Made by a program: the position numbers. Shown here piece after piece: positions 3,001-6,000 of a DNA stretch of 35,161 bases (the stretch's first letter is position 1; the number at the start of each line of letters is the position of its first letter). The stretch is from a virus (Duplodnaviria; Heunggongvirae; Uroviricota; Caudoviricetes), in the IMG/VR virus record IMGVR_UViG_2700989521_000009; one strand, written 5' to 3'.

Positions 3001-6000
3001 GCACACTGGATTCGTCAACCAGTGAATCGCTTAATGAGGTCGACAAGCGCATCACTAAACTGGATAAAGAAGGCGGTGAGGCGTTTCTGGCAATGTGGTC
3101 AAAAAAAGCGGGAGTTGATGGTATCACTGCGGGGATCGGGATTGTCGCCGGAAAAGACAGTGAAGGCAGGCCTGTAAGTCAGGTTGCAATTTCTGCGTCG
3201 CAGTTGTTTGTCTTTGACCCGAACAACCCGGATAACACCGCCTATCCGTTTGCGGTATCAGGTGGCAAGGTTGTGATCCCGAAAGCGATGATTTATGACG
3301 CGGTGATTGAAACACTGGTGTCGCGGAAGGTTGTGGCGGATGAGGTAAAAGCCGGGGTAAGTATCACTTCGCCAGTTATCCGGAGTGCCGTTATTCAGAA
3401 CGGAAACTTTCAGGTTGATTCTCAGGGTAACCTGAATATTGGAGGCCTTTTCAGTGTTACGTCACAAGGGCAACTGACAATTCGTTACTCTAATCAGAAT
3501 GTAGGACTGGTGATCCGCAATGATAAAATTGAGGTTTATGATCAGAATGGACGACTGGCTGTTCGCATAGGCAGATTACGCTGATCAGGAGGTGAGTATT
3601 GGAATACGGTTTTGCCATTTATAACAGAAATAACGTTAATGTTACGGGCGTGCTGACTCCGGTATTTTTCCTGGACAGATTTACAGCGGAGTCTGGCTCA
3701 AAGACGTACACGAATAAACCCGACGGGAAATCATTGCAGGCTGTATGTTGTTTATTTCCCTGGAATAATGTATTTGCGGATCGGAAAGTACCGAAGATAA
3801 CCATTAATGGCAATACGGTGACGTGGTCGAATCTTGAGCAGGGTATGGGATCTTATATTTATACATTCTGGGGATAAGTGTCATGTATGGTTTGAGCATT
3901 ATGAAGCCGGATGGCAGCGTATGGATAAGTCCAGGTTTTACGCCGCAGTGTCTGATCAACAAAGGCACCATACCGGCGACTGAAAAGTCTTTTTTTAAAA
4001 CATCAATCCCGTCAGGCAAAAGTTGTTTTTTCTTTATCAGAACAGAGAAGAAGGCCGATGTCATGTACACGCATGAACAGATTGATGGATATCATGCACT
4101 AAGGCTTCATGTAATTGTCAGGGGAACGAACCCTGGTGTTACGACGGTTTATGCTTTCGCGAATATGGTTACTCCACCTTCTGAGTATGGTATCGCCATG
4201 TATAACCCGGACGGTGAGATGATTTATCATGGCGAAATGATGCTGCTTGACGCGAAGTTAATACCTGTTGATATCAAATTTGAAAAGGACCTTGGATATC
4301 CATGCGCAATCATGCCTGCACTGGTCGGGTATTATAACTGGAAAAGAACTCCTTATGATCGACCGATTTATACCACATCCACTGGTGCTACAGGAAATAA
4401 AATATATTCCTGTGAGCATTATTCCGGTGGTGCAACATGGGATATTCGAAAGCCGTATATAGATAAGGTCTTGGTTATTAATACAGCAATGTATGATTAA
4501 TAAGAAAATCTACATTAATAAAAACTTTTTATCATATCAATGCAATATATTTGATTTATATTAAATAAAGGAAAATCGCACATTACTGTACCTTTTAATA
4601 ACAGGAATAATCTAAAGATGAAAAATATTTATAAGATTATTGCGTGTGCAGTTATTGGGACGAGCATGGTAGCCATGCCAGCACATGCAGCAGAAGGAGA
4701 CCATACAATTTCTCTGGGGTATGCGCACTTTCAGTTTCCGGGACTGAAGGATTTTGTAAAGGATGCGACTGCTCATAACAGGGAGACTTTCAGTCATTTC
4801 GTCAACAGAAACTACTTTTCTTCATTGGGCGAATATACAGATGGTCGGGTCAGTGGATATGAAGGCAAGGATAAAAATCCACAGGGCATTAATATCAGGT
4901 ATCGCTACGAGATAACGGATGATTTTGGCGTTATCACCTCTTTTACATGGACGCGTTCTCTCACTAACTCACAGACATTTATTGATGTGCAGTCAGCCGA
5001 TCATAGCAGGAAGATTAAGAATCCGGCAGCTTCTGCCAGAACGGATATCAGGGCGAATTACTGGAGTCTGTTAGCGGGGCCTTCATGGCGGGTTAATCAG
5101 TACATGAGTTTATATGCGATGGCAGGGATGGGCGTTGCTAAAGTTACCGCTGACCTGAAAATTAAGGACAATATTAACAGTAGTGGTGGATTTTCTGAAA
5201 GCAACAGCACGAAAAAAACCTCCCTTGCGTGGGCTGCAGGTGCACAGTTTAACCTGAATGAGAGTGTTACTCTGGATGTGGCTTACGAAGGTTCCGGCTC
5301 TGGCGACTGGCGCACGAGTGGCGTTACTGCTGGCATTGGCCTGAAATTCTGACCTGTATCCGGTAACCGTTTACTACCCGCTGTGATGGCGGGTTTTTTA
5401 TTGTCCGTACAGGGCAAAAATCGTAAATTATGCGTGGGTGCCTTTCGGCTGATGGCTGGAGGGTGAACCTGAAGGCCTGATGTGGAAAGGCCCCGAGTCA
5501 ACCTAACGTTAACCCGAGGCCCTAACACTTCGTACCTTAAGCAAGTAGAAGGTTAGCGCCTCTCTGTAAAAGGAGTCAAGCGCTATGTCGCAAAAATCGC
5601 TTATCACCGTCACAATTTGCATGACGGTTATCTTCACCATCTGGATGTTGCACGGTTCACTGTGTGAGTTCCGGCTGAATTTGTGGGGAGCGGAGTTTGC
5701 AGCGTTCTTACAGTGTAAGCAGTAGGAAAACCGCGACGGGGACGAAAGTCCCCGTCAACTGGTTGCTGAGGTTCAGCCGATATGGCACCCGTTTCAGGTG
5801 AGAGAATGAACGATAAAATTCTCCGGTATATGCAGCGTGTTGTGAGAAATTCCCGCAACCCTGAATTTATGAATGAAGTTAAAGACGCCTGCCTTAAAAA
5901 GCAGGCGTTTTGTTTTGAGGCACCTGATGGCTTTCTGGTGCTGCGTTCTGTGCTCAGTGCTGATGGTATCCCTTATGTTCTGGTGTTGCTGGGCGTGTGT

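Follow-up and report, generated by a model that had tools for sequence, protein, structure and literature searches.

A probable lom-adjacent hok/sok-type module without mok in Shiga toxin phages and its coincidence with the locus of the small RNA 24B_1

In the hok/mok/sok locus of plasmid R1, translation of mok up to the hok Shine-Dalgarno (SD) sequence is required for Hok synthesis, and a 3' stem-loop shields the truncated hok mRNA from 3' exonucleases (PMC9841398). A phage-borne relative, hokW-sokW of Sakai prophage 5 (Sp5), is a proven type I toxin-antitoxin (TA) system that needs RNase III and Hfq; HokW is toxic and is neutralised by an antisense RNA, which vanishes after induction while HokW appears before endolysin, and the locus advances lysis (Takada et al. 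2021, PMC8621323). The 20-nt RNA 24B_1 of phage Phi24B has been published as the first functional microRNA-like molecule of bacteria. The present analysis concerns a 46-codon open reading frame (ORF) next to lom in IMG/VR virus record IMGVR_UViG_2700989521_000009, a 35,161-nt stretch of caudoviricete DNA that is referred to below, as a whole, as the window. By sequence criteria this ORF is a genuine Hok-family membrane-toxin gene, and it probably forms, together with its flanks, a complete type I module without mok, the antisense RNA of which appears to be the published precursor transcript of 24B_1.

The product of the ORF, MSQKSLITVTICMTVIFTIWMLHGSLCEFRLNLWGAEFAAFLQCKQ (46 aa), has a single hydrophobic segment at residues 6-22 (Kyte-Doolittle 17-residue mean 2.32), with SLCE at residues 25-28 and AAFLQC at residues 39-44, both motifs being kept across 30 homologues. 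This agrees with the preliminary description of a 46-codon ORF for a single-transmembrane peptide with SLCE and an AAFL-C tail, and its assignment to the Hok/Gef type was likewise upheld by formal alignment. The Pfam family HOK_GEF (PF01848) matched the peptide over profile positions 6-42 of 42 with 33.2 bits (E 4e-8; gathering score 22 bits), PHROG 251 matched with E 2.8e-24, and the best NCBIfam model was HokA (NF007290, 38.4 bits). BLASTP against Hok of R1, a sequence present at 100% identity in >2600 plasmid records, gave 30% identity over 44 aa with E 9e-7. A database search returned 56 homologues at 59-98% identity, named Hok/Gef and nearly all 46 aa long, from E. coli, Shigella and Salmonella. 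The 46-aa clade, to which E. albertii and Citrobacter also contribute, has an invariant C-terminal core, AEFAAFLQCK. The ratio of nonsynonymous to synonymous substitution rates (dN/dS) of the homologous ORFs against the window was 0.13-0.36, although nucleotide conservation of the ORF may partly serve RNA structure, making dS imperfect; in the hok gene of phage P27, all six nucleotides that differ from the window are synonymous. An AAGGAG SD lies 9 nt 5' of the ATG and keeps a constant distance from it in nearly all copies of a 27-copy alignment. No second hok copy was found in the window by tblastn with five Hok peptides.

The toxin family and the automatic annotation of the gene are known already. 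The hok region matches Shigella phage POCJ13 at 100% identity, and 933W, VT2-Sakai and numerous further Shiga toxin (Stx) phages at ~99%. RefSeq NC_025434 carries a coding sequence at the same coordinates (PI30_gp65, 'MokW-like host killing'), the annotation pipeline PGAP names the peptide in E. coli 'Hok/Gef family protein' (WP_000078907.1), and the depositors of phage P27 named the gene 'small toxic polypeptide'. The coding sequence is missing from the original records of 933W (AF125520) and Phi24B (HM208303), in which the interval is empty, so the gene's earlier description as unannotated holds for those two records and fails for RefSeq and PGAP. The label 'MokW-like host killing', found in RefSeq PI30_gp65 and in PHROG 251, sits on a hok-type toxin ORF and is misleading by sequence comparison, as the ORF is neither a mok frame nor the hokW locus. 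What is new is the delineation of the module with support from covariation, its lack of mok and its coincidence with the 24B_1 locus.

The predicted full-length hok mRNA (Table 1) folds with a minimum free energy (MFE) of -151.8 kcal/mol (z -5.9) and with its ends paired, a tac/fbi closure of the sort that characterises hok mRNAs. Covariation was assessed in an alignment of 27 distinct copies taken from lambdoid as well as P2-like prophages. RNAalifold finds here the pairing of the two ends, one hairpin in the leader, a helix that takes in the SD and the start codon, a long-range helix joining codons 1-5 to codons 36-40, and the 3' hairpin. Across these consensus helices 98.3% of alignment cells were paired, compared with 37-43% when partners were slid, and 87 cells were doubly changed (compensated), compared with 28.6 in shuffles, none of 500 shuffles scoring as high. 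The pairing of the 5' tac-like with the 3' fbi-like element comprises seven invariant and three compensated pairs, tac columns 10-12 being compensated against fbi columns 369-371 in 10 of the 27 sequences. Tac columns 10-11 are compensated not only against columns 370-371 but also against internal columns 50-51, and column 88, which lies in GAGGC, changes in concert with columns 56 and 128 alike, pair 88:128 of the Sok-target hairpin being compensated in two sequences. Such covariation with two partners is what a refolding switch predicts. The helix between codons 1-5 and 36-40 had 99.7% of cells paired with one-sided changes only, whereas five of the nine pairs of the 3' stem-loop carry compensatory changes. 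This stem-loop, noted previously as a hairpin without a T-run, corresponds to the 3' stem-loop of R1 hok mRNA, and the fold-back elements that the preliminary description proposed to look for in the leader are represented by the tac/fbi closure and the internal tac partner.

Folding predictions made with ViennaRNA suggest how these elements could control the toxin. In the full-length RNA the GGAG of the hok SD (5572-5575) is predicted to pair with CUCU (5562-5565), with a probability of being unpaired of ~0.01; this rises to 0.2-0.65 in RNA lacking fbi, and falls again to ~0.01 when 5478-5543 is blocked in imitation of a bound antisense RNA. A direct switch of the hok SD through the anti-SD, as suggested by these thermodynamic predictions, agrees with the covariation. 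In the mechanism proposed here, the full-length hok mRNA would be inert, with tac paired to fbi and the upstream anti-SD burying the SD. Slow 3' trimming to the conserved stem-loop, by analogy with R1, would strip fbi from the RNA, after which the 5' end would pair with its internal partner, GAGGC would take GCCUC and the SD would open. The Sok-like RNA, fully complementary to the leader, would upon binding restore the anti-SD/SD pairing, and the sense/antisense duplex would form a substrate for RNase III. Upon loss of the antisense RNA, the 46-aa Hok peptide would enter the inner membrane and depolarise it.

The whole module extends over 5401-5795 and the cassette proper over ~375 bp, at about 5416-5790. 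The -10 box of the predicted hok promoter is separated by 6 nt from G5436 and is kept among homologues as TA[GA]A[TAG]T at a constant distance from GGGTGCC, despite unrelated flanks. Both proposed promoters rest on conservation and positional homology, and the antisense one also on published reads. The Rfam family RF01794 matched 5436-5598 on the plus strand with E 1.6e-5; as a control, the same model matched the sense strand of an R1-type locus from the 5' end of the hok mRNA to the hok AUG with 87.2 bits, so RF01794 is a model of the hok leader. No intrinsic terminator for the hok mRNA was found by a terminator scan inside the cassette, nor a terminator hairpin after fbi, and the nearest terminator-like site in the 3' direction (5885-5912) is context-specific and lies within the next ORF.

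Table 1. Positions in the window of the hok ORF and of the observed and predicted elements of the module around it
Feature	Position	Strand	Details and basis
lom intrinsic terminator, upstream module border in this phage	5376-5400	+	hairpin 5376-5394 and T-run; terminator scan
Predicted hok promoter	5401-5429	+	-35 TTGTCC 5401-5406, 17-nt spacer, -10 TAAATT 5424-5429
Predicted full-length hok mRNA, ~360 nt	5436-5795	+	Rfam leader alignment, fold, homology limits
tac-like 5' element	5436-5451	+	G5436-A5451 pairs with U5774-C5790 of fbi in the full-length RNA (MFE structure), with 5482-5494 after 3' trimming (folds)
Sok-like antitoxin RNA, ~80 nt	5461-5541	-	equals the Phi24B '80/81-nt precursor' 45661-45740; predicted ends
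ucb-like internal tac partner	5482-5494	+	closed form: GGCCCC pairs with GAGGCC 5515-5520; column 56 covaries with column 88
20-nt 24B_1 equivalent	5492-5511	-	19/20 identical; chance matches expected 0
Sok-target hairpin	5516-5562	+	GAGGC 5516-5520 with GCCUC 5558-5562; fold of truncated RNA
Sok-type antisense promoter, equal to published p24B_1	5550-5579	-	-35 TTGACT 5579-5574, 18-nt spacer, -10 TAACCT 5555-5550
Anti-SD and hok SD	5558-5575	+	CCUCUCU 5559-5565; AAGGAG 5570-5575; folding prediction
hok-family toxin ORF	5585-5725	+	ATG 5585, TAG 5723-5725, 46 codons
Long-range coding helix	5586-5600 with 5690-5704 (GAEFA codons)	+	RNAalifold columns 156-170 with 264-278
Conserved 3' stem-loop after the stop codon	5735-5756	+	scan and fold; without T-run on the plus strand
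fbi-like 3' element, downstream cassette border	5774-5790	+	complementary to the 5' end; P2-like homology stops there

On the opposite strand, the module coincides with the locus of 24B_1. Nejman-Falenczyk et al. 2015 describe 24B_1 as a 20-nt RNA, TAACGTTAAGTTGACTCGGG, 'encoded in the lom-vb_24B_43 region' and represented by 2223 minus-strand reads in Phi24B 80 min post-induction; p24B_1 (-35 TTGACT, -10 CGCTAACCT) is its predicted promoter, and its precursor is predicted to have 80 nt (PMC4426718). The in-vivo antisense reads therefore come from Phi24B, a near-identical phage, and not from the phage studied here. The Phi24B interval shares 98.4% identity with the window and codes for an identical, unannotated 46-aa Hok at 45784-45924. 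The published p24B_1 boxes map by exact match to 5579-5574 and 5558-5550 on the minus strand, which answers the earlier proposal to search for a sok promoter, and the -10 reads TA[AT]CCT in 27/27 homologues. By the Rfam alignment and the layout of R1, this position is that of the R1 Sok promoter. The Sok-like RNA (5541-5461) itself is predicted to be well folded (z -5.1), and the 24B_1 20-mer makes up the loop and 3' arm of its second hairpin; Hfq associates in vitro with the precursor of 24B_1, with a Kd of 25 nM (PMC10732415).

By sequence, then, the antisense RNA of the hok module appears to be the 24B_1 precursor transcript, and the 20-nt 24B_1 would most likely derive from it by processing or decay, the simplest origin being an RNase product of the Sok-like RNA or of its duplex with the sense RNA. 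Neither hok, sok nor antitoxin is mentioned in the 2015 paper (PMC4426718), in the 2023 follow-up (PMC10732415) or in a 2025 review (PMC12197685). A search of the literature readable without subscription found no link between 24B_1 and hok, and the single paper in which both words occur treats the two separately.

In contrast to the antisense gene, mok could not be recovered. No ATG, GTG or TTG leader ORF overlapping the hok start was found by three-frame translation of the window, and in the Rfam-based alignment the mok AUG of R1, which there comes after a GAGG SD within the Sok target, aligns to CGUACC. The GAGG that matches the R1 mok SD is kept at 5515-5518 without a following start codon, and a TAG stands at 5554-5556 in the mok-equivalent frame. 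Two short upstream ORFs of the window, one of 8 codons from ATG 5480 and one of 24 codons from GTG 5482 that stops at the same TAG, were rejected as mok, their starts, frames and ends varying between loci. Among 19 loci there was no conserved mok frame, the leader ORFs differing in start, frame and end, and a mok-like overlapping frame occurred only in one Salmonella locus (L023), partially, and in one E. albertii locus (L008), in full. In the latter, Escherichia albertii NBRC 107761 (~1398-1637), it comprises 79 codons from an ATG at -103, in the hok-1 frame, and overlaps nearly all of hok. This pattern hints that mok was ancestral and has decayed in the rest of the 46-aa clade. Given the dependence on mok in R1, the mok-less clade would be either silent or translated by another route, and the absence of the frame makes it probable that control of the hok SD is direct. 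The preliminary description had delineated neither mok nor Sok; of the two, a Sok-type antisense gene has been found, but mok is absent from the window and unconserved.

The resemblance of the module to hok/mok/sok of R1 extends to the Hok/Gef peptide, a long mRNA closed by tac and fbi, an internal alternative partner for tac, GAGG where the mok SD stands in R1, a 3' stem-loop of the protective kind, the SD AAGGAG 9 nt from the ATG, and an antisense promoter at the same place, with the target hairpin on one side and the hok SD on the other. It differs in the length of the peptide (46 aa vs 52 aa in R1, with ~30-34% identity), in lacking a mok start and a terminator hairpin after fbi, in the score of its leader against RF01794 (33.6 vs 87 bits) and in being carried by a prophage rather than a plasmid. 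The peptide shares W-M-x-x-x-SLCE and AAFL-x-CK with HokA of E. coli, the best specific model, and is 45% identical over 40 aa to a HokA sequence; an orthologous relationship with HokA was rejected, as 38.4 bits compares with an equivalog cut-off of 89. The best functional analogy is hokW-sokW, a type I system of the Hok type from the same phage family, although HokW has 51 aa (MKQQKAM...DYESEK) and its gene lies in another part of the phage. The module is not hokW-sokW of Sp5, as the peptides differ and the hokW primer had no match in the window at up to 3 mismatches; the lom-adjacent gene is therefore another Hok locus in these phages, as yet uncharacterised. A further parallel, in logic only, is offered by aapA/IsoA of H. 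pylori, which has no leader ORF and combines SD sequestration in alternative folds with 3' processing (PMC9841398), its toxins and RNAs being unrelated to those described here. The 24B_1 locus of Phi24B shares with the window the same DNA, the placement between lom and the vb_24B_43 homologue, the promoter hexamers, 19/20 nt of the 20-mer and an identical 46-aa peptide, and differs in having been published as an 'intergenic' trans regulator, whereas here it is read as the cis-antisense antitoxin of hok or a fragment thereof.

Three other explanations were set against a complete hok/sok-type module. That the ORF arose by chance in an intergenic region might be supposed from its length of only 46 codons, and from its having been ignored in the original 933W and Phi24B annotations, but the correctly spaced SD, the Pfam, NCBIfam and PHROG matches, the 56 homologues and the purifying selection together refute this, leaving it practically no probability. 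The locus could also be a decaying, translationally silent hok relic that has lost mok and only makes RNAs, which would fit the requirement for mok translation in R1, the window leader without any ORF overlapping the hok start, the restriction of a full mok-like frame to E. albertii with part of one in a Salmonella locus, and the occurrence of frameshifted and 5'-truncated copies. The chromosomal hok loci of K-12, moreover, are reportedly largely inactivated, which Pedersen and Gerdes are said to have described in 1999. A silent relic is nevertheless unlikely in view of the low dN/dS, the C-terminus invariant across genera, the AAGGAG SD at its constant distance in nearly all copies, the compensatory changes that uphold the helices, and the spread of the cassette into several prophage types and tandem arrays. 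Further points weigh against a functional module. A mok-less copy could be translationally silent, given the mok dependence of R1, and decayed copies do exist, one frameshifted (L012) and one without its 5' end (L020). The compensatory changes are shared within clades and represent few independent events, the RF01794 match of 33.6 bits does not reach the gathering score of 59, no sok/hok Rfam family being found in the window at its gathering threshold, and a sigma-70 consensus scan of 5300-6000 reported no promoter, that of hok falling below its threshold. The start sites of the hok mRNA and of the antisense RNA are predicted, as are both ends of the latter; the toxicity of the 46-aa peptide is predicted from its sequence, and no experiment on it was found. 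The 24B_1 reads were reported from the 80-min post-induction sample only (PMC4426718), and the published RT-PCR (reverse transcription PCR) of the 80-nt transcript cannot separate the strands if reverse transcription was not strand-specific. With these points included, the cassette is still quite likely to be a complete hok/sok-type type I TA module.

The third explanation is the published one, namely that 24B_1 is a trans-acting, microRNA-like small RNA (sRNA) with d_ant, the region upstream of S, and sdhB as its targets, and that the 46-codon ORF is irrelevant to the phenotypes. It draws on the effects of Delta24B_1 and pUC18_24B_1 on lysogenisation, survival, phage gene expression and ATP, which is lowered (PMC4426718 and PMC10732415), and on the finding that the 20-mer pairs weakly with sdhB mRNA in vitro. 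All four construct primers match the window with 0 mismatches, and the constructs can therefore be placed on the module. The 189-nt Delta24B_1 deletion corresponds to 5385-5573; it begins inside the 3' arm of the lom terminator and takes half of that terminator, the promoter and entire leader of hok, the antisense gene and 4 nt of the SD of hok, sparing the hok ORF. The printed primers of pUC18_24B1 lie at 5273 and 5838 and delimit an insert of 565-566 bp, without internal EcoRI or HindIII sites, that holds the whole intact hok module. Published constructs thus do not separate 24B_1 from hok. Hok-type toxins such as Hok and HokB depolarise the membrane and deplete ATP, so a loss of ATP is to be expected from a pore or depolariser of this type. 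Growth of the host strains was impaired by isopropyl beta-D-thiogalactoside (IPTG), and ATP was reduced in cells that carried either the plasmid or the prophage, for which the authors invoke targeting of sdhB (PMC10732415). Leaky Hok is an obvious alternative explanation of this drop in ATP, which is compatible with toxicity of the peptide but confounded. The perfect complementarity of the RNA in cis to a conserved hok leader, and the silence of the 24B_1 papers on hok, sok and antitoxin, also speak against the published explanation, which as an account that leaves hok out is very improbable, even though the two are not exclusive, as a Sok RNA could act in trans too. That 24B_1 is a fragment of a Sok-type antitoxin, and that its phenotypes come wholly or largely from a mok-less Hok module with a direct anti-SD/anti-anti-SD relay, is put forward tentatively, with a probability falling a little short of even.

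As regards the description of the plasmid, the 2023 paper states that pUC18_24B_1 carries 'the 189-nt region', whereas the primers of 2015 give 565 bp with the whole hok ORF included, a product that corresponds to 45473-46037 in Phi24B. The phenotypes at issue are the lysis/lysogeny balance, cell survival and lowered ATP, and if Hok is active, the conclusions drawn for 24B_1 on d_ant, sdhB, ATP reprogramming and lysogeny need to be re-tested with separating alleles.

The hok module lies on the same strand as both flanking genes, lom included. In lambdoid phages these flanking genes are late genes, and late antiterminated transcription should therefore enter the module sense-wise and collide with the antisense promoter. 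Speculatively, and by analogy with hokW-sokW, Hok might be set free upon induction or when the prophage is lost; the candidate roles are prophage addiction or, as with hokW, assistance in late lysis. As a toxin gene, hok is ordinary here, being of a known family with RefSeq and PGAP labels. The module would add a second type I TA system, besides hokW-sokW, to medically important phages, and a clade that keeps the full hok RNA machinery without mok offers a natural test of hok translation and repression without leader-peptide coupling.

Outside the Stx phages, copies of the cassette with 73-95% identity follow gpD and ogr in P2-like prophages, stand at lambdoid tail-fibre ends and form tandem arrays in Salmonella. 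In seven of nine such loci, homology spans window positions 5416-5790, the interval from the hok -10 box to fbi, or stops at 5790; for the two loci that diverge most, similarity can be followed less far. The cassette is carried at prophage ends, and the 46-aa clade is a separate subfamily tied to that location. The Salmonella enterica arrays (L027, L028 and L032-L035) consist of two to three tandem hok modules at ~490-500 bp spacing, each with its own tac/fbi ends and with differing peptides. A Salmonella copy at the lambdoid tail-fibre end (L020-L022) has an intact ORF and fbi, its tac/GGGTGCC being replaced by unrelated sequence, and is either a 5'-truncated or a differently driven module. 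In Stx2a phage Stx2_481 (L012, LC616045; 1665-1799), an extra G in a GGGG run shifts the hok frame at codon 36, the peptide ending in ...NLWGSGVCGVLTV. As this stretch is 100% identical in at least four phage records, an inactivated hok allele circulates in one Stx2a phage lineage. Near-identical enterobacterial hok cassettes were also retrieved from records titled Xanthomonas pisi, Planococcaceae metagenome-assembled genome and Vagococcus sp. (L004, L005 and L007), which are most likely contaminating contigs.

Downstream of the module, the next ORF (5782-6183, plus strand; phrog_610, function unknown) overlaps fbi as annotated. Its family profile match begins at residue 9, and its start is probably ATG 5806 rather than the annotated 5782, with the consequence that fbi stays intergenic. 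The hairpin and T-run at 5885-5912 within this ORF are strong and explain weak Rfam matches to GlmZ and BSnc120. Further along the window, the stretch at ~20800-23300 matches, with 99.9% identity, chromosomes of Shiga toxin-producing E. coli in which phage antirepressor genes precede host ynfF and a gene for a 4Fe-4S protein; the window is a prophage-chromosome junction and not a free phage genome. Within the same interval, annotated in E. coli as Ant/AntB, ynfF and 4Fe-4S binding protein, two minus-strand matches to Rfam sRNA-Xcc1 (RF02221), at 21355-21440 and 21891-21975, reach the gathering score with 74.5 and 53 bits.

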